From positions 24,862,001 through 24,926,000 of the forward strand of contig NC_135801.1 of the NCBI RefSeq assembly GCF_964213995.1: a DNA stretch of 64,000 bases. Reading direction: 5' to 3'. Positions 4,636-62,411 of this stretch are shown here, one piece after another; position 1 is the first letter of the stretch, and every line of letters begins with the position of its first letter. The notes under the pieces are model-generated. The model was not told where the DNA came from. It was given only the letters and a program-made list of their open reading frames with translations, and searched no databases. Source of the stretch: Mustelus asterias (Eukaryota). A program made the position numbers and the translations under genes.

Positions 4636-6429
4636 ATAGAACTGAACGCACCCTCGACAGGTAACTTCCAATTTGCAATTCAGAGCCAGCTGCCCGCGCT
4701 CTTTACCCACTTCCACCTCAGCTTCACCTCCTCCCAACCCCATTCCCAACATGCCAGCAACTGCAGGTGCCATTTGCATCCCAGCCAGCTGAAATTCCTC
4801 GTGGTCCAAAATCATTAAGCGCTCAATGGTACCAGTTTGGTAGCCACACCTCACCAAGCCTCAAAATCAAGAGGGCTTCTTCATCATCAGAACCATTGAC
4901 AATCACAGCATCCGGATAGCAAATCACATATTTAGTTTATTAATTATCTCCCCATGCATGGCTTCCACAGTTCTGGAATAACTAATGGTCATCACAAATT
5001 TTAAGCCAATTTAAGTCAAAGTTATATGATTATATGTCACCATTGTAATTTATTGTTCATTAGCTCCAGTTTTGCATTATGAGATAAGAATAGGAGTTTT
5101 AATCTTGACATTATCTTGAGGTTAAAAAAAAATCCATGCATTACTTTTCACAAATGGGGTTATTGTTTTCAGGTGAAAGTCTTGCATTTGCTCTTTTAAC
5201 AAAGTCATTAAAGTAAATGCAGAAAGGAATTTGCCTCAAACACCTTAACCAGTTAATTAAAAAAAGCACACAGAGGAATGTCTACCCTAAGGTGCCTAAA
5301 CAATCACTGTTGTGGTAAAACCTCATTACACATGTAGCTTTTCGTTAATTATCTTATAATTACACAGCACTTTCACCTTTCAGCTTGATGACCCCCTCAA
5401 GAAAGAACATAGACCAAAAAAAGAGAGGAAGACTGTCTCTCTCTCTATTGTACATTTGATGTATCTGAGAAGAACGCAAAATGAAAAATTCAGCAAACAG
5501 AAACTTCAGCTGAAGATTCGCAACTCAAGATAACATACATCCATATGTTCCTTGTGCAGATTCATGCTTAATGCTATCTTTGTACCTAAGTGTGTCTTGA
5601 AGATTTTTTTAATGAATCGCCATGAAATAAATCATTCTGGCTTTTAATGTAATGCCAGTATCTTCGATTTTCAAGTTGCTTTTTTCACCTTAACCATTAA
5701 TACTCTAAAACAGTTTGTTGTAATGCTGGGGAAAGAAACAAAGCACCCATTTGGAACCAAACAAAAATGCTATAAAACATTGCATTAAAATTTAAAAGCA
5801 TTATAAATAATATGAATTATACATAGACGCCTCATACAAATGGGTCTTGGTGATGTGATTGGCCATTAACTACAATTGATGCGAAGACAATAATTTGAAG
5901 CATTCCTCATCTTAATTGGTAAGAAAGCTTCTGCCTCTGAAATAATGATCTGTAAATTCAACTGTCTGTGTAGTGATTTAGAAATAATGATTTGTGACAA
6001 GATATCTGCAAGCATTTCTTCAAGCATTAGCGTAACACAGTATCAATGTCCCATCATACAGAAAGTAGCCAGTATGGTGATGGTACCTGATAATTGCAGT
6101 TAACATTTTGTAAACTCTTGTTTGTTTAGCTTAAGCTAACATTAGTAATATCAGATAACCAGTCTGTTTGACACTGTTTTAAGATGTATCTCTCTTCATT
6201 CATTGTAAAAGGAATACAGTCTTCAACTTGCAAAGGCTTAAGGCTCGCACAAAGATCACAAAAAGCTATTTAAGTAAAGTCTTGTTTGCGGATGACTGTG
6301 CTCTCATAGTACTCACACTCCAGAGGACATGTTAACTGCTTTGTCCAAGCCTCAGAATACTTCAGCCTTACAACAAGTCTAAAAAAGACAGATCTCTTGA
6401 ACCAACCTGCCCCTGGCCACAATCAATAA

Positions 6430-6740
6430 CAGTAAGAAGTTTAACAACACCAGGTTAAAGTCCAACAGGTTTATTTGGTTGCAAAAGCCACACAAGTTTT
6501 CGGAGCCTTAAGCCCCTTCTTCAGGTGAGTGGGAATTCTGTTCACAAACAGGGCATATAAAGACACAAACTCAATTTACATGAATAATGGTTGGAATGCG
6601 AATACTTACAGCTAATCAAGTCTTTAAGATACAAACAATGTGAGTGGAGAGAGCATCAAGACAGGCTAAAGAGATGTGTATTGTCTCCAGACAGGACAGC
6701 CAGTGAGACTCTGCAGGTCCAGGCAAGCTGTGGGGATAAT
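6430..6740 (-). mobile_element. Penelope-like element 3' UTR fragment
   Basis: Homologous to the 3' UTR following the GIY-YIG ORF at 38507-38807. Confidence 0.85.
6491..6527 (-). ncRNA. Minimal type I hammerhead ribozyme motif (variant)
   Basis: cac CTGAAGA a ggggc-ttaag-gctcc GAAA ac TT gtg on the minus strand. Confidence 0.6.
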
Positions 6741-6838
6741 ACATCCTTCAACTCACTTTGGAAGTTCTGCTCTGTTGGGACTATCCCTTCCACTCTTAAT
6801 AATAAAATTGTCCAGCGCCTGGCAAAAGCCAGCTCTAT

Positions 6839-7167
6839 GGGCGGCACGGTGGCACAGTGGTTAGCGCTGCTGTCTCACAGTGCCAAGAGCCCGGGTTTGA
6901 TTCCCGACTTGGGCTACTGTCTGTGTGGAGTTTGCACATTCTCCCCGTGTCTGTGTGGGTTTCCTCCGGGTGCTCCGGTTTCCTCCCACAGTCCAAAGAT
7001 GTGCGCGTTAAGTGGATTGGCCATGCTAAATTGCCCCTTAGTGTCAGGGGGATTAGCCAGGGTAAATGTGTGGGGTTATGAGGACAGGACCTGGGTGGGA
7101 TTGTGGTTGGTGCAGACTCGATGGGCCGAATGGCCTCCACCTGCTCTGTCGGATTCTATGATTCTAT
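6839..7167 (+). mobile_element. V-SINE (HE1-like), full length, inserted in RTE
   Basis: gggcggcacggtggcacagtggttag head, V-domain, gattctat tail. Confidence 0.92.
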
Positions 7168-7454
7168 ACATTCATACATACATTTGGATCAAAGTCTACC
7201 AGGCAAGGGTTTTCCCTTCACTTTTCTATGGCTGTGAGATCTGGTCAACTTACAGGCGTTACATTAAGCAATTCGTTACATTCCACCTTCCCTGCTTAAG
7301 ATCCATCTGCAACATCAAATGGCAGGACAAAATCCCGAACACAAAAGTTCTTGCAAATTGCCACATACCTGGTAACAAGAGCATAGTCACAGAGTTTAGC
7401 TTCGCTGGGTTGGCCATATAGAGGATTATTTGAGGAAAATAGAGTTGAGTCCTT

Positions 7455-7645
7455 AAGATAAAAGCAAAATACTGCAGATGCTGGAATCCGAAACAAAAAC
7501 AGAAAATGCTGGAAAATCTCAACAGGTCTGACAGCATCTGTGGGGAGAGAATTGAGCCAACGTTTCGAGTCCAGATGACCCTTCGTCCGAAAGGTCATCC
7601 AGACTCTAAACGTTGGCCCTATTCTCTCCCCAAGATGCTGTCAGA
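7455..7645. mobile_element. Short palindromic Penelope-type end fragment (second family)
   Basis: Inverted arms tctgacagcatct..gccaacgtttcgagtccagatgaccct / aggtcatccagactctaaacgttggc..agatgctgtcaga; hammerhead-like gacgaagggtc..gactcgaaacgtt on minus; related copies at 49261, 55495 and 57755. Confidence 0.65.
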
Positions 7646-8104
7646 GTTGAATACTTACAGGACAAGTGAGCACACCCCACAAAGGCTCACCTTCATCCAC
7701 CCCTATAACAATGACTTTGCATATTGGATCGACAAATCAAGGTTTAGTTTGACATCACATATGAGACAACACTAACCTAGATGGTAAACAATTGAACACT
7801 CATCCATCCAAGCGATGGGAGAATCCATCAACTTATGACAGTGTTTAAATGGTCAGAGAGGAAAAGTGGAAAAATGGAAAGTGGGAACTGCATTGGATCT
7901 GTAACTATCCTATCTGCAGCTGTTCATTCTAAAGAATACCCCACTTACCCATCCATGACAGATATCGATCTCTCGAAAGTGTATAGAAAAAAACTCGATG
8001 AACTTACGAACCTTCAGACTATATGTAGCAACTCAATAAGTTGGTGCAGTGCTTCCCTGCAGAAGGAAAATTATAGAACACATTTGGCTTTGAGCAGGGC
8101 TTAG

Positions 8105-23741: not shown

Positions 23742-24089
23742 CTTGCCTTCCCCACAAGAATGATCTCTGACCCCACTAGCCAACTTAGTGGCATCTTCCT
23801 CAAAATGGGTCATCTGCCATCCTTCCTTCATCTGGGATATCACCCTGTGGTTGTGGGTGGGCTTGGCCGACGTGAAGATAAATGGAAGGGAACATGATGA
23901 GAAAAAATTGAGAGGTTGGGAAGCATGGGTGCCTGCTGTGTGCTGAACCCACCTCAATAAGGGCTGAGATGGAGATTGTGCAGCATGGTAGATGAGTTGC
24001 TGGTGATGTGAGACAATCAGTGCTGATAACGTCCACAGTGTGAAATCCCTGAACAGTGTAACCTTTGAGTGCATGATGCCATTGAGAGA
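23742..24089 (+). repeat. Donor segment duplicated in inverted orientation at 25361-25708
   Basis: 348 bp, about 10 substitutions, no indels by manual alignment. Confidence 0.95.
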
Positions 24090-25037: not shown

Positions 25038-25160
25038 TGTCTTATGAAACAGTTAAATAATAAGGCCACATTTTAAAAAGAAATTACTGGCAGAATCTTC
25101 CACAGTAAGAAGTCTCACAACACCAGGTTAAAGTCCAACAGGTTTATTTGGTAGCAAATA

Positions 25161-25197
25161 CCATAAGCTTTCGGAGCACAGCTCCTTCGTCAGATGG
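25161..25197 (-). ncRNA. Minimal type I hammerhead ribozyme motif
   Basis: ccat CTGACGA a ggagc-tgt-gctcc GAAA gc TT atgg. Confidence 0.75.
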
Positions 25198-25863
25198 AGT
25201 GGATATCTGTTCTCAAACAGTGCAAACAGACACAGAAATCAAATTACAGAATACTGATTAGAATGCAAATCTCTACGGCCAGCCAGGTCTTAAATGTACA
25301 GACAATGTGGGTGGAGGGAGCATTCAAAACAGGTAAAGAGATGTGTATTGTCTCCAATTGTCTCTCAATGGCATCATGCACTCAAAGGTTACACTGTTCA
25401 GGGATCTCACACTGGGGACGTTATCAGCACTGATTGTCTCACATCACCAGCATCTCATCTACCATGCTGCACAATCTCCATCTCAGCCCTTATTGAGATG
25501 GGTTCAGCACACAGCAGGCACCCATGCTTCCCAACCTCTCAATTTTTTCTCATCATGTTCCCTTCCATTTATCTTCACGTCGGCCAAGCCCGCCCACAAC
25601 CACAGGGTGATATCCCAGATGAAGGAAGGATGGCAGATGACCCACTTTGAGGACGATGCCACTAAATTGGCTGGTGGGGTCAGAGATCATTCCTGTGGGG
25701 AAGGCAAGACAATACACATCTCTTTAACCTGTGTTGAATGCTCCCTCCACCCACATTGTCTGTACATTTAAGACCTGGCTGGCTGTAGAGATTTGCATTC
25801 TAATCAGTATTCTGTAATTTGATTTCTGTGTCTGTTTGCACTGTTTGAGAACAGATATCCACT

Positions 25864-25900
25864 CCATCTGACGAAGGAGCTGTGCTCCGAAAGCTTATGG
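25864..25900 (+). ncRNA. Minimal type I hammerhead ribozyme motif
   Basis: ccat CTGACGA a ggagc-tgt-gctcc GAAA gc TT atgg; palindromic AAGCTT in place of stem III. Confidence 0.75.
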
Positions 25901-26083
25901 TATTTGCTACCAAATAAACCTGTTGGACTTTAACCTGGTGTTGTGAGACTTCTTACTGTGCTTACCCCAGTCCAACGCTGGCATCTCCACATCATGAGAA
26001 TCTTCCACCACAGCTGGGATGATCACAAGCCAATTAAAATGACTTTGGAAAAATTAGCCTTTCCTGCCTAATATAACTTCATT

Positions 26084-26413: not shown

Positions 26414-27000
26414 TGGCAGTTTGTCATCACCACTCTGCCAATGTATGATTCTTGGAAGGTACTTTGCCACATATTCTGAGGGAGATCATTGGTGCAATAT
26501 AACCTAGCACAGGTTGTTCAGAGGTTACATTTCCCAAACTGCCTATTCAGTTTCTGGGATGCATAGGTCTGTCGCATGCTTCTCAATTCGCATATGACAG
26601 TCAGCGCACGACCTTTGGAACAATCAGAGGTTGGAATGGGAAAGGTTCATTGTGCTTGCCTTCCCTGTCTCAAAGTTTGGGCTCATTCACTGCGTCAACA
26701 TTCCAAATGTTGCCTCATCCGACTGTTAGTGAGTGATATAAGTCTGGCATGATTTTCCTTGGTACGACCACATTCCATCTGTTCCTTTCCTCAGCACTGA
26801 ATACATCTCCCACTGTGATAGACCAAGGACTTCCTGAGTTGGCACCATAAGAGTTCAGTGTGCTTGTAACTGGACCAAAATGGAGATGCTCAGGTCTTAC
26901 AGTCAGTTCCAAGGATAAGTGTACCATGGTTCAAGTGCATAGCCTTTGGCAGTGCTGTTGAGCCTCTTTACTTGCAACCTCTCTGACAGATTCTCTCATT

Positions 27001-28418
27001 ATGTGGAGATGCCGGCATTGGACTGGGATAAACACAGTAAGAGTTTTAACAACACCAGGTTAAAGTCCAACAGGTTTATTTGGTAGCAAATGCCATTAGC
27101 TTTTGGAGCACTGCTCCTTCGTCAGATGGAGTGGATATCCGCTCTCAAACAGGGCATACAGAGACACAAAATCAAGTCACAGAATACTGATTAGAATGCG
27201 AATCTCTACAGCCAACCAGGTCTTAAAGATACAGACAATGTGAGTGGAGGGAGCATTAAGCACAGGTTAAAGAGATGTGTATTGTCTCCAGACAGGACAG
27301 CCAGTGAGATTCTGCAAGTCCAGGAGGCAAGCTGTGGGGGTTACTGATAGTGTGACATAAATCCAACATCCCGGTTTAGGCCGTCCTCATGTGTGCGGAA
27401 CTTGGCTATCAGTTTCTGCTCAGCGACTCTGCGCTGTCGTGTGTCGTGAAGGCTGCCTTGGAGAATGCTTACCTGAAGATCAGAGGCTGAATGCCCGTGA
27501 CTGCTGAAGTGCTCCCCCACAGGAAGAGAACAGCCTTGCCTGGTGATTGTCGAGTGGTGTTCATTCATCCATTGTCGTAGCGTCTGCATGGTTTCCCCAA
27601 TGTACCATGCCTCGGGACATCCTTTCCTGCAGCATATCAGGTAGACAACGTTGGCCGAGTCGCAAGAGTAGGTACCGTGTACCGTGTTCTCACGTGAGAT
27701 GATGGCATCCATGTCGATGATCCGGCACGTCTTGCAAGGTTGCTGTGGCAGGATTGTGTGGTGTCGTGGTCACTGTTCTCCTGAAGGTTGGGTAGTTTGC
27801 TGCGGACAATGGTCTGTTTGAGGTTGTGCGGTTGTTTGAAGGCAAGAAGTGGGGGTGTGCGGATGGCCTTGGCGAGATGTTCGTCATCATCAATGACACG
27901 TTGAAGGCTTCGGAGGAGATGCCGTAGCTTCTCCACTCCGGGGAAGTATTGGACGACGAAGGGTACTCTGTCCACCGTGTCCCGTGTTTGTCTTCTGAGG
28001 CCTTCTTGACACACGACAGCGCAGAGTCGCAGAGCAGAAACTGACAGCCAAGTTCCGCACACATGAGGATGGCCTAAACCAGGATCTTGGATTTATGTCA
28101 CACTATCAGTAACCCCCACAGCTTTCCTCCTGGACTTGCAGAATCTCACTGGCTGTCCTGTCTGGAGACAATACACATCTCTTTAACCTGTGCTTAATGC
28201 TCCCTCCACTCACATTGTCTGTATCTTTCAGACCTGGTTGGCTGTAGAGATTTGCATTCTAATCAGTATTCTGTAACTTGATTTTGTGTCTCTGTATGCC
28301 CTGTTTGAGAGCAGATATTCACTCCATCTGATGAAGGAGCAACGCTCCGAAAGCTAATGGCATTTGCTACCAAATAAACCTGTTGGACTTTAACCTGGCA
28401 TTGTTAAAACTCTTACTG
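27001..28418 (-). mobile_element. Penelope-like element with inverted 5' arm (27001-28000 minus, GIY-YIG remnant; 28001-28418 plus)
   Basis: VVYLICCRKGCPEAWYIGET; about 415-bp inverted repeat; 13-bp TSD agattctctcatt at 26988-27000 and 28419-28431. Confidence 0.93.
28324..28360 (+). ncRNA. Minimal type I hammerhead ribozyme motif
   Basis: ccat CTGATGA a ggagc-aac-gctcc GAAA gc TA atgg; the opposite-arm copy (27093-27129) has GAAA changed to AAAA. Confidence 0.75.
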
Positions 28419-28739
28419 AGATTCTCTCATTTCCATTTACTCCATCCTTAAGTTCAAAAGTATTTTGTAAATTCCATTTTTCTTTTGACAATATTTTAAA
28501 TGTTTTCATGCTGTGATCTCAGGTTGGCTCGCCATGGTCAGCCCGGCCCGATAGGTTGTAGGAAACATAAGGATTGGAACAGTGCTGAATTCAACATTTA
28601 GAATACTGGGAAACTAAGGTGATTCTTCATAGGAGGTGAAATAATGTTCAAGTTGGAGTTAACAATTAGCAAAAGAACACAAAATAAGAGCGGAACTAGA
28701 CCATTCGACCCCTGGAACCCATTCTGACATTCAGATAGA

Positions 28740-37667: not shown

Positions 37668-37861
37668 TCTCATGATGGAAAATTGAAAATTGGGGATGTA
37701 TAAGGGTCTGCTCGGATGAGGAGGATCGCAACAGACACCTCCAGACGCTGAAAGATGCCCTCATAAGAACAGGATATGGCGCTCGACTCATCGATCAACA
37801 GTTCCGACGCGCCACAGCGAAAAACCGCACCGACCTCCTCAGAAGACAAACACGGGACACG

Positions 37862-38506
37862 GTGGACAGAGTACCCTTCGTCGTCCAGTACTTCCCCAGA
37901 GCGGAGAAGCTACGGCATCTCCTCCGGAGCCTTCAACATGTCATTGATGAAGACGAACATCTCGCCAAGGCCATCCCCACACCCCCACTTCTTGCCTTCA
38001 AACAACCATGCAACCTCAAACAGACCATTGTCCGCAGCAAACTACCCAGCCTTCAGGAGAACAGTGACCACGACACCACACAACCCTGCCACAGCAACCT
38101 CTGCAAGACGTGCCGGATCATCGACACGGATGCCATCATCTCACGTGAGAACACCATCTACCAGGTACACGGTACCTACTCTTGCAACTCGGTCAACGTT
38201 GTCTACCTGATACGCTGCAAGAAAGGATGTCCTGAGGCATGGTACATTGGGGAAACTATGCAGACGCTACGACAACGGATGAAGGAACACCGCTCGACAA
38301 TCACCAGGCAAGACTGTTCTCTTCCTGTGGGGGAGCACTTCAGCAGTCACGGGCATTCAGCCTTGGATCTTCAGGTAAGCGTTCTCCAAGGCGGCCTTCA
38401 CGACACACGACAGCGCAGAGTCGCTGAGCAGAAACTGATAGCCAAGTTCCACACACATGAGGACGGCCTAAACCGGGATGTTGGATTTATGTCACATTAT
38501 CAGTAA
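37862..38506 (+). CDS. Partial PLE ORF: GIY-YIG endonuclease C-terminus (frame open from about 37709; no native start)
   Basis: NVVYLIRCKKGCPEAWYIGETMQTLRQRMKEH..VGEHF..RRVAEQKLI..GLN. Confidence 0.8.
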   Translation: MDRVPFVVQYFPRAEKLRHLLRSLQHVIDEDEHLAKAIPTPPLLAFKQPCNLKQTIVRSKLPSLQENSDHDTTQPCHSNLCKTCRIIDTDAIISRENTIYQVHGTYSCNSVNVVYLIRCKKGCPEAWYIGETMQTLRQRMKEHRSTITRQDCSLPVGEHFSSHGHSALDLQVSVLQGGLHDTRQRRVAEQKLIAKFHTHEDGLNRDVGFMSHYQ

Positions 38507-50962: not shown

Positions 50963-53875
50963 CTATCTATAGCCCTCAATCCCATTAAATCCCATGTACT
51001 CATCCAGAAGTCTCTTAAAAGACCCCAACGAGTTTGCCTCCACCACCACCGACGTCAGCCGATTCCACTCACCCACCACCCTCTGAGTGAAAAACTTACC
51101 CCTGACATCTCCTCTGTACCTACCCCCCAGCACCTTAAACCTGTGTCCTCTCGTAGCAACCATTTCAGTCCTTGGAAATAGCCTCTGAGAGTCTACCCTA
51201 TCCAGACCTCTCAACATCTTGTAAACCTCTATCAGGTCACCTCTCATCCTTCGTCTCTCCAGGGAGAAGAGACCAAGCTCCCTCAACCTATCCTCATAAG
51301 GCATGCCCCCCAATCCAGGCAACATCCTTGTAAATCTCCTCTGCACCCTTTCAATGGCTTCAACATCTTTCCTGTAATGAGGTGACCAGAACTGCGCGCA
51401 GTACTCCAAGTGGGGTCTAACCAGGGTCCTATAAAGCTGCAGCATTATCTCCCGACTCCTAAACTCAATCCCTCGATTAATGAAGGCTAGTACGTCGTAC
51501 GCCTTCTTGACTGCATCCTCCACCTGCGAGGCCGATTTAAGAGTCCTATGGACCCGGACCCCAAGGTCCTTCTGATCCTCTACACTGCTAAGAATGGTAC
51601 CCTTCATATTATATTGCTGCTTCATCCCATTGGATCTGCCAAAATGGATCACCACACACTTATCCGGGTTGAAGTCCATCTGCCACTTCTCCGCCCAGTC
51701 TTGCATTCTATCTATGTCTCGCTGCAACTTCTGACATCCCTCCAAACTATCCACAACACCACCTACCTTGGTGTCGTCAGCAAACTTACCAACCCATCCC
51801 TCCACTTCCTCATCCAGGTCATTTATGAAAATGACAAACAGCAAGGGTCCCAGAACAGATCCCTGGGGCACTCCACTGGTCACTGACCGCCATGCAGAGA
51901 AAGACTCCTCCACAGCCACTCTCTGCCTTCTGCAGGCAAGCCAGTTCTGGATCCACAAGGCAACAGCCCCTTGGATCCTATGCCCTCTCACTTTCTCAAG
52001 AAGTCTTGCATGGGGGACCTTATCGAACGCCTTGCTGAAGTCCATATAGACCACATCCACCGCTCTTCCTTCGTCAATGTGTTTGGTCACATTTTCAAAG
52101 AACTCAACCAGGCTCGTAAGGCACGACCTGCCCTTGACAAAGCCGTGCTGACTACTTTTGATCATACTAAACTTCTCTAGATGATCATAAATCCTGTCTC
52201 TCAGGATCCTCTCCATCAACTTACCAACCACTGAGGTTAGACTCACCGGTCGGTAATTTCCCGGGCTGTCCCTGTTCCCTTTCTTGAATATAGGGACCAC
52301 ATCTGCAATCCTCCAATCCTCCGGAACCTCTCCCGTCTCCATCGACGATGCAAAGATCATCGCCAAAGGCTCCGCAATCTCCTCCCTCGCCTCCCACAGT
52401 AACCTGGGGTACATCCCATCCGGTCCCGGCGACTTACCAACCTTGATGCCATTCAATAGTTCCAACACATCCTCTTTCTTTATGTCCACATGCTCGATCC
52501 TTTCTGTCCACCGCAAACCAGCAGTACAACCACCCAGATCCCTTTCCACCGTGAATACCGAGGTAAAGTATTCATTAAGCAGCTCCGCCATTTCTAATGG
52601 TTCCGCACAAACTTTTCCCCCTTCACCTTTTAAGGGTCCTATGCCTTCACATCTCATCCTTTTACTCTTGACATATTTGTAGAAAGCCTTGGGGTTCTCC
52701 TTAATCTTACCCGCCAAGGCCTTCTCATGACCCCTTCTCGCTCTCCTAATTTCCTTCTTAAGCTCCTTCCTACATCCCGTATACTCCTCTAAATCCTTAA
52801 CACCTCCTAGCTCTCTGAACCTTCTGTACGCCTCTCTTTTCTTATTCACCAGGTTCATCACAACCTTCGTGCACCACGGTTCCCGTACCCTACCAACACC
52901 CCCCTGTCTCATCGGAACGTTGTCATGCAGAGCTCCAGACAAACATTCCTTGAAAATCCTCCACTTTCCTTCGGTACTTTTCCCCAAGAATGCCTCCTTC
53001 CAATTTACCCGTCTAATTTCCTCCCTGATGACACTGTATTTCCCTTTACTCCAGAGAAACACTTTCCTAGCCTGCCTGATCCTATCTCTTTCCAATGCTA
53101 TCATGAAGGAGATAGAATTATGATCGCTATCCCCAAGATGCTCACCCACCGAGAGATCCTCCACCTGTCCAGGTTCATTAGCCAGCACCAGATCAAGTAC
53201 AGCCTCTCCTCTAGTAGGCTTATCCACATACTGTGTCAGGAAACTCTCCTGGACACACCTAACAAACTCCTCTCCATCCAAACCCCTAGCCCTAGGGATA
53301 TTCCAATCTATGTTTGGGAAATTAAAATCTCCCATCACGACAACTCTGTTATTCCTACATCTCTCCAGGATCTGTTTCCCCATCTGCTCCTCAACATCTC
53401 TGTTACTATTGGGCGGCCTATAGAAAACACCCAGCAACGTTACCGACCCCTTCCTGTTCCTAACCTCCACCCACAGAGACTCCGTCGTCAATCCCTCCAC
53501 GGCGTCCACCTTCTCTACAGCCGTGACACTATCCCTGATCAACAGTGCCACTCCCCCCCCTCTCTTGCCTCCCTCCCTGTCCTTCCTGAAACATCTAAAA
53601 CCCGGCACCTGAAGCACCCAGTCCTGTCCCTGAGACATCCAAGTCTCCGTAATGGCCACCACATCACAATTCGAAGCAGCAATCCACGCTCTAAGCTCAT
53701 CCACTTTATTCACTACACTCCTGGCATTAAAATAGACACATCTCAGACCTTCAGCCTGAGCACTTCCCTTCTCCATCACTCGTCTAACCTCCCTCTTACC
53801 CTGTTTACATTCCTTATCTATTTGCGAGCTAACCTCCTCGCTCTCAGTCCCCTCATTTCGATTCCCTCCCCCCAA
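50963..53875 (-). CDS. CR1 ORF2: APE endonuclease plus reverse transcriptase, uninterrupted 970 codons
   Basis: YFNARS, AITETW, YRPP, GDFN, SDHN; NYRPVSLTS, QHGF, DFSKAFD, GVPQGS, FADD. Listed start is TTG, true start uncertain. Confidence 0.93.
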   Translation of the reverse strand: MGGGNRNEGTESEEVSSQIDKECKQGKREVRRVMEKGSAQAEGLRCVYFNARSVVNKVDELRAWIAASNCDVVAITETWMSQGQDWVLQVPGFRCFRKDREGGKRGGGVALLIRDSVTAVEKVDAVEGLTTESLWVEVRNRKGSVTLLGVFYRPPNSNRDVEEQMGKQILERCRNNRVVVMGDFNFPNIDWNIPRARGLDGEEFVRCVQESFLTQYVDKPTRGEAVLDLVLANEPGQVEDLSVGEHLGDSDHNSISFMIALERDRIRQARKVFLWSKGKYSVIREEIRRVNWKEAFLGKSTEGKWRIFKECLSGALHDNVPMRQGGVGRVREPWCTKVVMNLVNKKREAYRRFRELGGVKDLEEYTGCRKELKKEIRRARRGHEKALAGKIKENPKAFYKYVKSKRMRCEGIGPLKGEGGKVCAEPLEMAELLNEYFTSVFTVERDLGGCTAGLRWTERIEHVDIKKEDVLELLNGIKVGKSPGPDGMYPRLLWEAREEIAEPLAMIFASSMETGEVPEDWRIADVVPIFKKGNRDSPGNYRPVSLTSVVGKLMERILRDRIYDHLEKFSMIKSSQHGFVKGRSCLTSLVEFFENVTKHIDEGRAVDVVYMDFSKAFDKVPHARLLEKVRGHRIQGAVALWIQNWLACRRQRVAVEESFSAWRSVTSGVPQGSVLGPLLFVIFINDLDEEVEGWVGKFADDTKVGGVVDSLEGCQKLQRDIDRMQDWAEKWQMDFNPDKCVVIHFGRSNGMKQQYNMKGTILSSVEDQKDLGVRVHRTLKSASQVEDAVKKAYDVLAFINRGIEFRSREIMLQLYRTLVRPHLEYCAQFWSPHYRKDVEAIERVQRRFTRMLPGLGGMPYEDRLRELGLFSLERRRMRGDLIEVYKMLRGLDRVDSQRLFPRTEMVATRGHRFKVLGGRYRGDVRGKFFTQRVVGEWNRLTSVVVEANSLGSFKRLLDEYMGFNGIEGYR

Positions 53876-53880
53876 CCTTT

Positions 53881-54762
53881 CTAGTTTAAAGTCTCTCCAG
53901 TAGCCTTAGCCAACCTTCCCGCCAGGATATTGGTCCCCCTGGGATTCAAGTGCCACCCGTCTTTTTTAAACAGGTCACACCTGCCCCAAAAGACGTCCCA
54001 ATGATCCAAGTACCCAAATCCTTGTCCCTTGCTCCAGTCCCTCAGCCACGCATTCATTCTCCACCGATTCCTGTTGTCACTCTCCCGCGGCACAGGCAGC
54101 AATCCCGAGATTACTACCTTTGCATTCCTCTTTCTCAGCTGTCTACCTAACTCCCTATATTCTCTTTTCATGACCCCTTCCCTCTTCCTACCTATGTCAG
54201 CAGTACCTATATGCATCACGACCTTCGGCTCCTCTCCCTCCCCCTTCAGGATTTCTGGGACTCGACCAGAGACATCCCGGACCCCTGCACCAGGGAGGCA
54301 AACCACCATCCGAGAGTCCCGTCTTTGTCCGCAAAAACGCCTATCTGACCCACTCACCGTAGAGTCCCCAATTAGCACTACCCTCCTTTCCTTACCCTTT
54401 TGCACTACTGGGCCAGGCTCAGCTCCAGAGACACTGCCACCGCTGCTTCCCCCAGGTGGACTGTCCACCCCAGTAGTACTCAGACAGGAGTACTTATTAT
54501 TAAGGGGCACATCCACCGGGGTGCTCACCATCAACTGAGTTTTCTCCTTCCTCACTGTTACCCAGTTACCTTCCTCCCGTGGTCCCGGTGTGACCACCTG
54601 CCGATAGCTCCTGTCAATGACCTCCTCACTATCCCTAACCCGGCGAAGGTCCTCGAGCTGCAATTCCAGTTCCCTAACATGGTCCCTTAGGAACCGCAGC
54701 TCAACACACCCAGCACAGATATGGTCGTCCGGGAGGCTAGGAGCCTCCAGGACCTCCCACAT
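53881..54762 (-). CDS. CR1 ORF1 with SGNH/GDSL esterase-like domain, slightly N-truncated
   Basis: CSQCRMWEV..CAGC zinc motif, IGDS, CLPGA, HIGTAD, DGWHLN. Confidence 0.88.
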   Translation of the reverse strand: MWEVLEAPSLPDDHICAGCVELRFLRDHVRELELQLEDLRRVRDSEEVIDRSYRQVVTPGPREEGNWVTVRKEKTQLMVSTPVDVPLNNKYSCLSTTGVDSPPGGSSGGSVSGAEPGPVVQKGKERRVVLIGDSTVSGSDRRFCGQRRDSRMVVCLPGAGVRDVSGRVPEILKGEGEEPKVVMHIGTADIGRKREGVMKREYRELGRQLRKRNAKVVISGLLPVPRESDNRNRWRMNAWLRDWSKGQGFGYLDHWDVFWGRCDLFKKDGWHLNPRGTNILAGRLAKATGETLN

Positions 54763-55494
54763 CCTACATTGGGAACAACATAGGGTGCTGGTGAGGCCAC
54801 ACTTGGAGTATTGTGTACAGTTATAGTCTCCTTACTTGAGAAAGGATATACTGGCACTGGAGGAGGTACAGAGGAGATTCACTAGATTGATTCTGGAGTT
54901 GAAAGGGTTGGCTTATGAGGAGAGACTGAGTAGACTGGGGCGATACTCATTGGAATTCAGAAGAATGAGGGGCGATTTTATAGAAACATATAAGATTATG
55001 AAGGGAATAGATAAGATAGAAGCAGGGAAGTTGTTTCCACTTGCAGATGAAACTAGAACTAGGGGACATGGCCTCAAAATAAGGGGAAGCAGATTTAGGA
55101 CTGAGTTGAAGAGGAACTTCTTCACCCAAAGGGTTGTGAATCTGTGGAATTCCCTGCCCAGTGAAGCAGTTGAGGTTACCTCATTGAAAGTTTTTAAGGT
55201 AAGGGTAAATACATTTTTGAACAGTAAAGGAATTAAGGGTTATGGTGAGCGGGTGGGTAAGTGGAGCTGACTCGAAAAGATCAGCGATGATCTTATTGAA
55301 TGGTGGAGCAGGCTCGAGGGGCCAGATGGCCTGCTCCTGCTAGTTCTTTTGTTCTTATATTCTAAGTTGCAAGAAAAAACTATCCAAAGGTTGCCCATGT
55401 ACAAGTACATCCAGATCTCAGTGCCTACTCTAATTGCACTGTGGGGGGGGGGGGGGGGGGGGTGCTCAGACTTGATCCATAGGAGTCAGACCTG

Positions 55495-58014: not shown

Positions 58015-58380
58015 TGTGGTGAACCATCGTTGGTTCCCACCAGGTAGTACTGAGCCAGGGTCTGGCCAGTACTATGAGTCTGTATATATGTTGCTGTTGG
58101 GGTTAGGGTTGGGTTGTTCTACTTGTTACTGTTGGGGTTAGGGTTGGGTTGTTCTACTTGTTACTGTTGGGGTTAGGGTTGGGCTGTTCTACCTGTATTA
58201 TAGTTATTATGGTACATCCCAGTCGGGCTCCGCCTCCTGGGAGAGGTATAAAGGTCACTGCTCTGTCTGGGACCCCTCAGTCTGGGATCGTGTACTATAT
58301 ATGGTAGCTTCATTGTAATAGTAGATAAAAGCCTTTATTTCCTTGAGCATCTCTAGCCTCGTGAGTTATATCGCGCATCA
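58015..58380 (+). repeat. 5' LTR (366 bp)
   Basis: TG..CA; TATAAA at 58247, Inr-like tcagt at 58277; three 35-bp units. Confidence 0.95.
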
Positions 58381-58441
58381 ATTTTATTTACTATTAATTG
58401 AACTCTCGTCATTAAAAAAAAAGGAAAACGATACAGAGAGT

Positions 58442-59200
58442 ATGGAGCAAATGTTAAAACCCGAACGTCTTACACTGGACCCACGTGCGGCGGGCGCCTG
58501 TAACACCTTCGACCACTGGTTGAAATGTTTTCAGGACTACCTTGCAGCCTCCGCAACGGTCACCACAGACGACGACAGACTCCGGGTCCTCCACGCGAGG
58601 AGCGACGCTGTATATTTAGCGATCCGTGCGGCCACCGACTACAAAGGGGCCCTCGAGCTTCTTAAGAAGCGCTACATTAAACCGCCAAACGAGATGCATG
58701 CTCGATATCTTTTAGCCACTCGACGACGGCAGCCCAGCGAAACGACGGAACAGTACGCGTGCGAGCTTCTGCAGCTAGCCAGGGGCTGTAGCTGCAAAGC
58801 AGTGTCGGCAGACCAGAACATGAATGACTTCGCTCGAGATGCGTTTGTGGCGGGAATCGGATCATCTTATATCCGACTCCGACTGTTGGAGCAAGGTAAT
58901 CTCGATCTCACTAAGTCAATAGAACTAGCGGATACGTTGGAGACGGCCTCCAAAAGCCTAGCGTTGTATATCGAAGACCACGTGGAGACAGCGTGGCAGG
59001 AGCAGTCGCAGATCCCACCTCGTCCCTCGGGTCCGAAAAGCTGCGTGATGGTGTGCCCACACTCGGGCCTGACGACGGCAACAGCGGTGTTACTTCTGTG
59101 GGGGAGTGAAGCACACTCGGCAGCGATTCCCCGCTAAAGCGGTGTTGTGCTCCGCCTGCGGCAAGAATGGGCATTATTCGAAGGTATGTCGATCCAAACT
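58442..59200 (+). pseudogene. gag, frameshifted near 59090
   Basis: MEQMLKPERL..ARYLLATRRRQ..RDAFVAGI; out-of-frame CYFCG and CSACGKNGHYSKVC knuckles. Confidence 0.85.
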
Positions 59201-59249
59201 TACTTCCAGGAACAGCAGTGCGGCCTGAGACTCCCCGGAGCCGGGTTCC

Positions 59250-62200
59250 TTGTCGTCGGCATCGTCGAGGGTTTCTTCCACATGCGAGGCCAGGACGTCG
59301 CCATTACAGACGACGGAGTCGCAAGAGACGCGCGACCACCAGAGGTCGCTGATTTTGGCGCCATCGCCCACGTGCGACCTATGGGAGCAGCCATTTTGGT
59401 TGGCACCGACCGCGAACGACCAGCAGGGGTCATCTTCATCCATCTCAGCTGCCTGCAGTGGCGCTCACGAACCAACGGTGGCGTCGATCATCCTGGACCA
59501 GGCAAAGCCTCACAGACTCGACAAGTCCATGATGGACATACAGGTAAACAAACGCTTGATTTATTGTCTGTTTGACAGCGGGAGCACGGAGAGTTTTATT
59601 CACCCAGATGCTGTGAAGCGGTGTGGCCTCCAGATCCAACCTGTCAAGCAGACGATTTCGATGGCATCAAGGTCCCGGTCTGTCACCGTGCTAGGGAGTT
59701 GCGTGGTAAATTTAACGGTGCAGGGCACGGTTTACGAGAGCTTCAAGCTCCTGGTGTTACCGCACCTTTGCGCGCCAATACTCCTCGGACTAAATTTCAT
59801 GGTCCACTTGAAGAGTGTAACCCTACAGTACGGTGGGCCACTCCCTCCGCTTTCAGTGGGAGAACAGCAGCCTCCAAATTGCCCAACGCGTCCCGCCTGT
59901 AGCCTCACGACGCTGAAGATTACCACACCCTTCCTATTCCAGAATCTCGTGCCAGGCTGCAAGCCCATCGCGACTAAGAGTAGGCGTTACAGCGCTGAGG
60001 ATCGGATCTTCATTCGATCTGAGGTTCAGCGGCTCCTCAAGGAAGGGATCATACAATCTAGTGCTAGTCCTTGGAGAGCGCAGGTCATGGTGGTCAAGAG
60101 TGGGAACAAACCCCGGATGGTCATTGACTATAGTCAGACCATTAATAGATACACGCAGCTGGATGCGTATCCCCTCCCGCGCATATCTGACATGGTCAAT
60201 CAGATTGCACAGTACCGGGTGTTCTCCACCATCGACCTAAAGTCTGCCTACCACCAGCTCCCCATTCGCCCAGAGGACCGACAATACACGGCTTTTGAGG
60301 CGGATGGTCGCTTGTACCATTTTCTAAGGGTTCCTTTTGGTGTCACCAATGGGGTCTTGGTCTTCCAGCGTGCTATGGACCGAATGGTGGACCATAACGG
60401 ACTGCGGGCTACCTTCCCGTACCTGGATAACGTCACCATCTGCGGCCATGACCAGCAGGACCACGATACCAATCTCCTTAAATTCCTACGCACTGCATCT
60501 CGCCTGAATCTGACCTACAACAGGGAGAAGTGTGTATTTCGTACGCGCCGCCTAGCCATCCTCGGATACGTGGTGGAAAACGGGGTCATCGGCCCTGATC
60601 CAGACCGTATGCGTCCCCTCCTTGAACTTCCCCTGCCCACTAGCGCAAAAGCACTGAGAAGATGCTTAGGCTTCTTCTCTTACTACGCACAGTGGGTTCC
60701 CAATTACGCGGACAAAGCCCGTCCACTCATCAAGTCTACCTCTTTTCCCCTAGCACCAGAGGCTCGGTTGGCCTTTGATAAACTAAAAGCCGACATCGCG
60801 AAACCCACGATGCACGCTGTCGATGAGACCATCCCCTTTCAGGTGGAGAGCGATGCATCTGATTTCGCCCTGGCTGCCACACTTAATCAGGCGGGCAGGC
60901 CCGTCGCCTTTTTTTCTTGCACCCTCCAAGGCCCCGAAATTCAACATTCAGCGGTGGAAAAGGAGGCCCAGGCATTGGCGCCATTACTTGGCGGGAAAAC
61001 GGTTCACCCTGATCACGGACCAGCGGTCCGTGGCGTTCATGTTCAATAACACGTTACGGGGCAAGATCAAGAACGACAAGATCTTGAGGTGGAGAATTGA
61101 ACTCTCCACCTATAATTACGACATCATGTATCGTCCAGGGAAACTCAACGAGCCCTTGGACGCCCTGTCGCGTGGAACATGCGCCAGTATGCAGGAGGAC
61201 CGTTTGCAGGCTCTCCACAATGACCTCTGCCATCCAGGGGTCACTCGGCTCTACCACTTCGTAAAAGCCCGGAATCTACCCTACTCGGTGGAGGATATCA
61301 GGTCCATAACGAGAAGCTGCCGGGTATGCGCGGAATGCAAACCGCACTTTTACCGACCTGACAGGGCACAACTTGTCAAGGCCACTCGTTCCTTCGAAAG
61401 ACTGAGTGTGGACTTTAAGGGCCCCCTTCCCTCGACAGATCGGAATGTGTACTTCCTCATCATCATTGATGAGTACTCGAGATTCCCTTTTGTCATTCCC
61501 TGCTCTGATACGACCGCTGCCACGGTTATCAAGGCATTTCGTGATCTTTTCACCCTGTTCGGGTACCCCTGCTACATCCACAGCGATAGGGGCTCGTTGT
61601 TCATGAGCGATGACTTGAGGCAATACCTGCTCTCATACGGGATTGCCTCTAGTAGAACCACGAGCTACATCCCTAGGGGTAACGGACAGGTGGAACGTGA
61701 GAATGCTACAGTCTGGAAGGCTGTCTGGAAGGCTGTCTTACTGGCGTTGAAGTCAAAAAGCCTTCCAGTCTCCCATTGGCAAGAGGTGCTCCCTGATGCG
61801 CTCCACTCCATACGCTCACTCCTGTGTACGGCAACCAACGCTACTCCCCATGAGAGGCTGTTTTTATTCCCTGGAAGTCTTCCTCTGGGACCTCATTACC
61901 GTCTTGGTGCCCGTACTCAGGACCTGACCTCCTGCGGCGACATGTTAGGGCCCGCAAGTCCGACCCTTTGGTTGAACAGGTCCAACTCCTCCACGCCAAC
62001 CCCCAGTATGCCTATGTGGTATACCCTGACGGGCGAGAGGACACGGTCTCGATTCAAGACCTGGCGCCAGCAGGGGACTTGGAAACCCCTGTCGCTCCCA
62101 TACCTCCTGTTAGAGATCCCCCAACTATTGTTTCCCCTCCTGACATGGCGCGGGCAGCATCGGGACCATCACTTAACCCTTTTACTCCCATGTACAGCTT

Positions 62201-62411
62201 GCCTGAGTCCAGGAGATGGTCGCCACTTCAAGGCGTGTCTGAACTCAACAGATTTTCATCACCTCGGGGTCAACCGGCCCGTGAGACAGTGGAGGAACCG
62301 TTGGACATCGCCTTGGGGAGAACGCCACCGCGAGTGCCTACTCCGGTGTCATCGCCGGTGTTGAGGAGGTCACAACGACAGTGCGGTCCCCCTGACCGTC
62401 TGAACTTATAG
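59250..62411 (+). pseudogene. pol: protease, RT, RNase H, integrase (frameshifts near 60975 and 61870)
   Basis: LFDSGS; IDLKSAYHQ, PFG, YLDN; SDASD; H-x4-H..CRVC, VDFKGP, IDEYSRF, HSDRG, NGQVER. Confidence 0.92.

Follow-up and report, generated by a model that had tools for sequence, protein, structure and literature searches.

The window analyzed here is a stretch of 64,000 nucleotides of Mustelus asterias DNA (assembly GCF_964213995.1, contig NC_135801.1, positions 24,862,001 to 24,926,000 of the forward strand), in which positions 25092-26008 hold two copies of a Penelope-like element (PLE) 3ˊ end facing each other across a piece of non-element DNA. The whole is enclosed by a 12-bp target-site duplication (TSD), AGAATCTTCCAC, at 25092-25103 and 25997-26008 on the plus strand; the last three nucleotides of its left copy (CAC) are common to the start of the first arm, a 5ˊ-truncated Penelope 3ˊ end that lies on the minus strand and has no tail (25101-25356). 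This inverted arm is followed by an 8-nt slip re-copy of its own end, ATTGTCTC (25357-25364, plus strand), whose last four letters, TCTC, are a 4-nt microhomology to the donor and run into the filler, a 348-bp inverted copy of 23742-24089 (25361-25708, plus strand). The filler meets the main arm, again a 5ˊ-truncated Penelope 3ˊ end (25707-25960, plus strand), at an AG microhomology, and only this plus arm bears a tail, 36 nt long (25961-25996, plus strand), which ends at an ATG that is the ORF start in full-length copies. The original prediction had described a minus PLE 3ˊ end, a filler and a plus PLE 3ˊ end inside one 12-bp TSD, with an AG microhomology on the right, and this anatomy is borne out; the filler lies within a single TSD, and one insertion event is supported as well. 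The short attg that it had called a left filler is indeed there, as part of the 8-nt re-copy of the arm end.

The two arms are 98.8% alike (two substitutions and one indel). Five other copies in the genome match the tailed arm without a difference over 251-253 nt, the left arm is two substitutions away from its nearest family copies, and a 102-nt stretch of the arm has 713 exact genome matches; judged by these identities, both arms are of recent origin. At the near-palindrome TGTCT-GG-AGACA their ends coincide to within 3 nt, the left arm reaching 3 nt further than the right. The combination of an inverted, 5ˊ-truncated copy, a 30-40 nt tail at one end and a TSD is that of PLEs. The reverse transcriptase (RT) domain was recovered above cut-off (RVT_1, 39.4 bits) in a near full-length copy of the arm family, L099, and a window segment at 37676-38503, which is 96-98% alike to the arms where the two overlap, gave a GIY-YIG match (E 2.5e-4, 21.7 bits) just below the cut-off of 22.6. 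The focal locus is a single young insertion of a Penelope EN+ PLE, which on domain order and an anatomy like that of PAc is putatively of Poseidon type. The L099 copy (4986-7817) is a near full-length Penelope with a 944-codon open stretch that sits within a 25-bp-type satellite, and this satellite is also the source of a 15-nt filler at that copy.

Each arm carries a putative minimal hammerhead ribozyme motif (left, 25161-25197, minus strand, by eye and by fold of stems I and II; right, 25864-25900, plus strand). Judged against the hammerhead core and the available text of PMC4209133, the core and stems I and II are present both by eye and by fold (z -0.85) and a minimal dimer-type motif fits, a type reported there to be inactive as a monomer and dependent on dimerization; an Rfam search of the arms at gathering and E-value thresholds returned no hammerhead match. 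An intact hammerhead had been predicted to end each strand. The candidate minimal motif is seen in both arms, but it sits 60-120 nt inside each end of the insertion.

Other mobile elements are found in the same window. A second, older Penelope head-to-head insertion with a 13-bp TSD and no filler lies 1 kb downstream (26997-28430), and its target also holds AGAATCT in element orientation. Two ORFs of 980 and 316 aa on the minus strand at 50963-54831 resemble ORF2 and ORF1 of what we take to be a CR1/L2-type LINE, and Gag-, protease/RT- and integrase-like ORFs on the plus strand at 58325-62411 presumably belong to a Gypsy-type LTR retrotransposon.

The donor (23742-24089, minus strand) is part of an old dispersed repeat and lies upstream of the insertion, 1,003 bp away from the TSD. 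The filler differs from its reverse complement by exactly 10 mismatches in 348 positions and by no indel, as predicted. Also in line with the prediction, the best match of the filler in the 3.68-Gb genome after itself is this local copy (97%), the other 38 matches listed among the best 40 of 231 candidates being 69-79% identical, so the neighbouring copy is the source. For 26 of 28 donor paralogs the alignment begins at the filler start or upstream of it, and most of the 28 extend beyond both filler ends, so that the embedded copy is the donor and the filler an excerpt from it. Five of the ten differences fall on the donor side, two on the filler side and three are unclear. Error-prone copying of the filler was rejected, because just two of the ten are clearly filler-side; given this distribution the copying appears to have been accurate and the filler about as old as the arms, with two clear filler-side changes in 348 positions against three in about 509 arm bases. 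The divergence between filler and donor (10/348) exceeds that between the arms (3/254; Fisher p 0.26, Poisson p 0.01), the excess being on the donor side, where it is unexplained. The repeat around the donor had been taken for a decayed Harbinger. This is partly backed: a paralog, L023, has a Myb_DNA-bind_5 domain above the Pfam cut-off, with weaker matches in L020 and L024, which points to a Harbinger-like repeat with a Myb/SANT-like exon, but no Myb/SANT domain was found in the window piece tested and no transposase match in the 20 donor-family ORFs scanned. From a by-eye reading of splice-like sites, the donor is likely intronic.

The family was surveyed at 172 loci besides the focal one, out of at least 713 young copies, so that all frequencies are rough. 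Set 1 comprised 92 loci, obtained by taking 10 kb of sequence at each of the first 100 among the 713 matches. Six of them were excluded by hand from the pairs (L063, L066, L068, L080, L111 and L127, where the closest inverted arm was that of another insertion or was complex) and two more were left out where no TSD was called at the partner arm. Set 2 started from 90 loci, six of which were dropped as repeats of counted loci and four because the 5ˊ end fell outside the locus; in the 80 scored, donors are visible only within about 1.5 kb. TSD-bounded head-to-head pairs were present at 58 of the 92 set 1 loci, in agreement with the earlier view that inverted arms are normal for PLEs. The TSD is 12-13 bp in 38 of these 58 pairs, and the tail is on one arm only in 57. 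No spacer separates the arms in 30 pairs, and 15 have gaps of at least 10 nt, many of which are repeated micro-copies of arm ends. An independent insertion, L097, has the same ATTGTCTCCA slip scar as the focal copy. Three apparently tail-less solo copies (L090, L111 and L063) have an inverted piece of tail, 13-20 nt long, at the 5ˊ junction and are perhaps pairs whose second arm is tiny. Two loci, L241 and L242, show an identical insertion with identical junctions on two small contigs, either a duplication or an assembly duplicate.

The lengths of the two arms are coupled. They are equal within 12 nt in 22 of the 58 pairs, against a mean of 4.1 and a maximum of 12 in 10,000 permutations, and among the pairs with both arms longer than 150 nt they match in 12 of 41, against an expected mean of 2.5. 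The shared stop point noted in the original prediction is real, the ends lying within 3 nt, but it is a trait of the family, and its reading as a peculiarity of the focal copy was rejected. Of 23 matched junctions, counting the focal one, 10 have a self-complementary stem of at least 5, compared with 7.8% of background positions; the stem-bearing junctions lie mostly at two hot spots, one of which is the focal TGTCT-GG-AGACA. Arm-length matching, often at short palindromes, suggests either a single RNA copied by both RTs or pairing of the ends at palindromes. Copying of the second arm from the first cDNA is not favoured at the focal locus, where the left arm reaches 3 nt further than the right and its other end coincides exactly with the tail boundary; in 52 pairs, 11 private variants are common to both arms and 76 are unshared, a result that weighs neither way.

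Local-DNA fillers of at least 50 nt recur at four of the 172 other insertions, about 2 in 100. L110 is a head-to-head pair with a 12-bp TSD and a 128-nt filler in direct orientation, whose donor (100%, next match 85%) lies about 510 nt beyond the tailed end; it alone of the four shares the architecture of the focal copy. L075 is a solo arm with a 12-bp TSD and an inverted 54-nt filler between TSD and arm, its donor, at about 1.0 kb, being the only other match. L080 has an inverted filler of 496 nt with a donor of 94% and no TSD resolved, and L275 a direct filler of 278 nt within a 9-bp TSD, from a donor (97%, next match 94%) about 0.73 kb away. At all these loci no scored candidate in the genome (top 40 or fewer) matches the filler better than the local donor does. 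At L275 (positions 1040-1790; G000:C16 near 30185083) the filler breaks the Penelope at 2569|2570, and the element continues beyond it in exact register with none of its sequence lost, which, read from the junctions, is the best hint either of an RT that switched and returned or of a later patch. Among distinct TSD-bounded pairs the local filler is found in 1 of 84, and none of 28 further non-anchor pairs (23 with a TSD) has a long one. A control of random points gave one local match in 170 (59 nt, 93%), which is not clearly below 4 in 172; the raw count is therefore not decisive, and it is the position inside the TSD together with the best-in-genome donors that carries the case. Other fillers had other origins. 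Those at L118, L119 and L243 were copied from other parts of the element, and in the 70-nt filler between the arms of L062 (5793-5862) 56 nt are 96-98% matches to a dispersed repeat; the source is thus distant and not nearby, and this candidate was dropped. Also dropped were L238 and L195 (a SINE flank matching another SINE copy), L089 (the gap is a LINE 3ˊ end) and L092 (no source within 10 kb).

It is proposed that the filler is a one-off repair scar, formed during insertion by host end joining in which a folded-back end copied nearby single-stranded DNA; on balance we lean towards this reading. The first steps can be modelled on PAc, an anole element whose protein cuts and extends both strands in vitro, with reverse transcription starting at two internal sites that lie one tail-length apart and bound the tail (PMC11167929, available text), and these two start sites account for one tailed and one tail-less arm. 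At the focal locus, both strands would have primed reverse transcription both cDNAs would have stopped at TGTCT-GG-AGACA, and resection of the left end would have gone beyond 1.3 kb. Next, the top-strand 3ˊ end would have re-copied ATTGTCTC, paired via TCTC at 24086-24089, 1.27 kb back on its own strand, copied 348 nt leftwards, been released and joined the other cDNA via AG. Fold-back on the same side would give an inverted copy (the focal locus, L075 and L080) and pairing across the break a direct one (L110 and L275). Our preferred copier is a host end-joining polymerase, presumably polymerase theta-like, and the product is inferred to be a dead scar.

Host end joining is supported by a filler that lies inside one TSD, by a donor that is the best match in the genome and by the occurrence of the same class of event at L110, L075, L080 and L275. 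The gaps of at least 10 nt with repeated arm-end micro-copies may be analogous to the complex insertions seen in microhomology-mediated end joining of the synthesis-dependent type (SD-MMEJ; PMC2943611, available text), and the apparently equal age of filler and arms is compatible with its formation at the time of insertion. Against it, 348 nt copied from 1 kb away goes far beyond typical L1 templated insertions and SD-MMEJ patches in both length and distance, the exact register of L275 would fit an RT switch-and-return or later repair better, and the higher divergence of filler from donor than of arm from arm is left unexplained.

A wider model, which we advance tentatively and regard as doubtful, is that PLEs routinely insert through a two-ended break with two cDNA overhangs of coupled length, and that their own RT can leave its RNA, copy 50-500 nt of resected DNA 0.5-1 kb off and return in register, as L275 hints. 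If it were true, about 2% of insertions would duplicate local DNA; each genome would then hold hairpin cassettes by the hundred, and with them a fossil record through which the joining step of PLEs, still unsolved, could be tested. The narrower claim, that at the focal locus the Penelope RT jumped from its own RNA to nearby single-stranded DNA, copied it and then returned or was released, seems to us unlikely. It would explain why the element at L275 picks up again at the very next base once the 278-nt local copy ends, and the fillers from other element parts and the few filler-side changes agree with it, as does the idea, cited for L1, of a growing cDNA pairing with nearby DNA. The focal slip re-copy, repeated at L097, is on the other hand typical of iterative end-joining synthesis, and the available text of PMC11167929 reports no jump of PAc onto internal genomic DNA. 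As the switching agent the element's own RT is possible, favoured by L275, while the slip scar fits host end joining equally.

Somewhat less likely still is a sequence of events in which the insertion was at first a spacer-less 250-bp palindrome that later broke at its centre and was patched with local DNA by ordinary repair. Long perfect palindromes are fragile, the two arms end within 3 nt of the same near-palindromic point, as expected of a centre, 30 of the 58 pairs have no spacer, and L275 could be such a patch; the filler is, however, no younger than the arms, and at L075 it lies between the TSD and a solo arm, where there is no palindrome. We find it very improbable that the RT switched to a nascent transcript through the donor. 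The orientation is compatible with this for one of the two cDNA ends, but both orientations are compatible and orientation is therefore uninformative; the donor is a decayed repeat in a window whose ORFs of at least 150 aa resemble transposon ORFs or noise, and the donors, none further off than about 1 kb, lie to either side and in either orientation, which resection fits better.

The original prediction went further and saw a Pack-like unit that could be remobilized from either strand and would be transcribed as a hairpin with a stem of about 250 bp. The hairpin is upheld by the predicted fold of a read-through RNA, which has a stem of about 250 bp at -590 kcal/mol in which both hammerheads are paired off. 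To the cassette as a Pack-like non-autonomous element, mobilized or mobilizable as a unit, we give hardly any credence. Both ends have an RT start site and a hammerhead motif, and pLTR-flanked host DNA has been moved in trans in a rotifer, there between two direct pLTRs (PMC3846280, available text). There is, however, no second copy of the cassette among the best 40 of 231 candidates, nor of the cassettes at L110, L080, L075 and L275 (at most the top 40 scored). Each of the 78 tailed copies that were scored, the focal one among them, ends within 29-38 nt of the arm, which is about +120 when counted from hammerhead stem II, whereas PAc needs RNA to +172, about 55 nt past the RT start (PMC11167929); by analogy, the protein-binding RNA downstream of the tail would be missing from the cassette. 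The dimer-type hammerheads are buried with both arms in the predicted hairpin, and that of PAc cleaves only with protein present (PMC11167929). With no second copy among the candidates scored, the Pack-like reading is largely refuted in this assembly, although trans-mobilization is still not impossible given the rotifer case.

An assembly artefact is the least credible of all: none of the read contigs listed spans the arm-filler junctions, but the TSD is exact, the 10 differences are scattered, the scars are typical of the family, the donor depth is 1.26 (X1) and 1.32 (X2) times that of the flanks (one sample, maybe the assembly's own), against 1.26 expected if the filler is on both chromosomes, and an X1 contig bears the filler letters at 23952 and 23997, which a donor allele could also explain. 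The contigs of X3, another organism, show no excess of donor depth (0.95x) at a depth under 4, too weak to count, and no empty or filler-less allele was seen among the read contigs listed.

The later steps of PLE insertion are described as yet to be validated (PMC11167929, available text). The junctions surveyed here record this completion step, with one tail per pair (57/58) and matched arms (22/58 against about 4 expected), and the occasional copying from up to 1 kb away implies long single-stranded ends. If the seven TSD-bounded pairs of one 484-kb region are extrapolated, with long local fillers in about 1% of pairs, each genome may hold a few hundred cassettes of this kind. Taken singly the focal locus is ordinary; it is the pattern across the family that is mechanistically informative.

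Pack-type elements hold host DNA between inverted ends inside a TSD, and the focal insertion does the same; it differs in having no daughter copies, in ends that are RT products rather than transposase TIRs and in a cargo that is a decayed repeat rather than a gene. With canonical EN+ PLE insertions (Pen2a_Av, PMC3846280; PMC8557442; PAc, PMC11167929) it shares, as far as their available text goes, the TSD-bounded head-to-head arms, the single tail of 30-40 nt, the palindrome at the inverted junction (PMC3846280 for palindromes) and, putatively, the minimal hammerhead; it differs in the 348 bp of local genomic DNA that separate its arms. In PMC3846280 a few captured sequences of unrelated origin are described between solo pLTRs, inside TSDs, and the available text names no local source. 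The full-text literature available, with subscription journals mostly outside it, contained no report of local donors or of matched arm lengths for PLEs, and the local-filler event is real, recurrent and probably undescribed for Penelope elements.

The closest parallels come from other element classes and from repair, and are drawn here from the available text of each report. Like a templated insertion, the focal locus has non-element DNA inside its TSD with a local best match and TCTC and AG microhomologies at its junctions. For L1, 22 templated insertions were counted in about 3,600 insertions, typically shorter than 250 bp and from within 15 bp (bioRxiv 2024.08.27.596794), and inverted duplications are attributed to self-annealing of resected ends with 2-bp homology (bioRxiv 2024.12.14.628481). 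The nearby non-element DNA, the microhomologies and the inverted copy from a self-annealed end are common to both systems, but here 54-496 bp come from 0.5-1.0 kb away and, at the focal locus, lie between two cDNA arms. R2, with snap-back onto nearby rDNA (PMC11371274), and ZfL2, with extra 5ˊ nucleotides from the flanks (PMC4245944), resemble the event proposed here in that, ahead of joining, the 3ˊ end of a cDNA or of the target acts as primer for synthesis templated by its own DNA or by DNA nearby; they are other element classes, with a single arm and mostly short additions. SD-MMEJ by polymerase theta (PMC2943611) offers snap-back inverted repeats, multi-round micro-copies and primers of 2-4 nt, as seen here; the resemblance is one of sequence pattern only, and both the length of the tract and the distance to its donor are much larger in the shark PLE.
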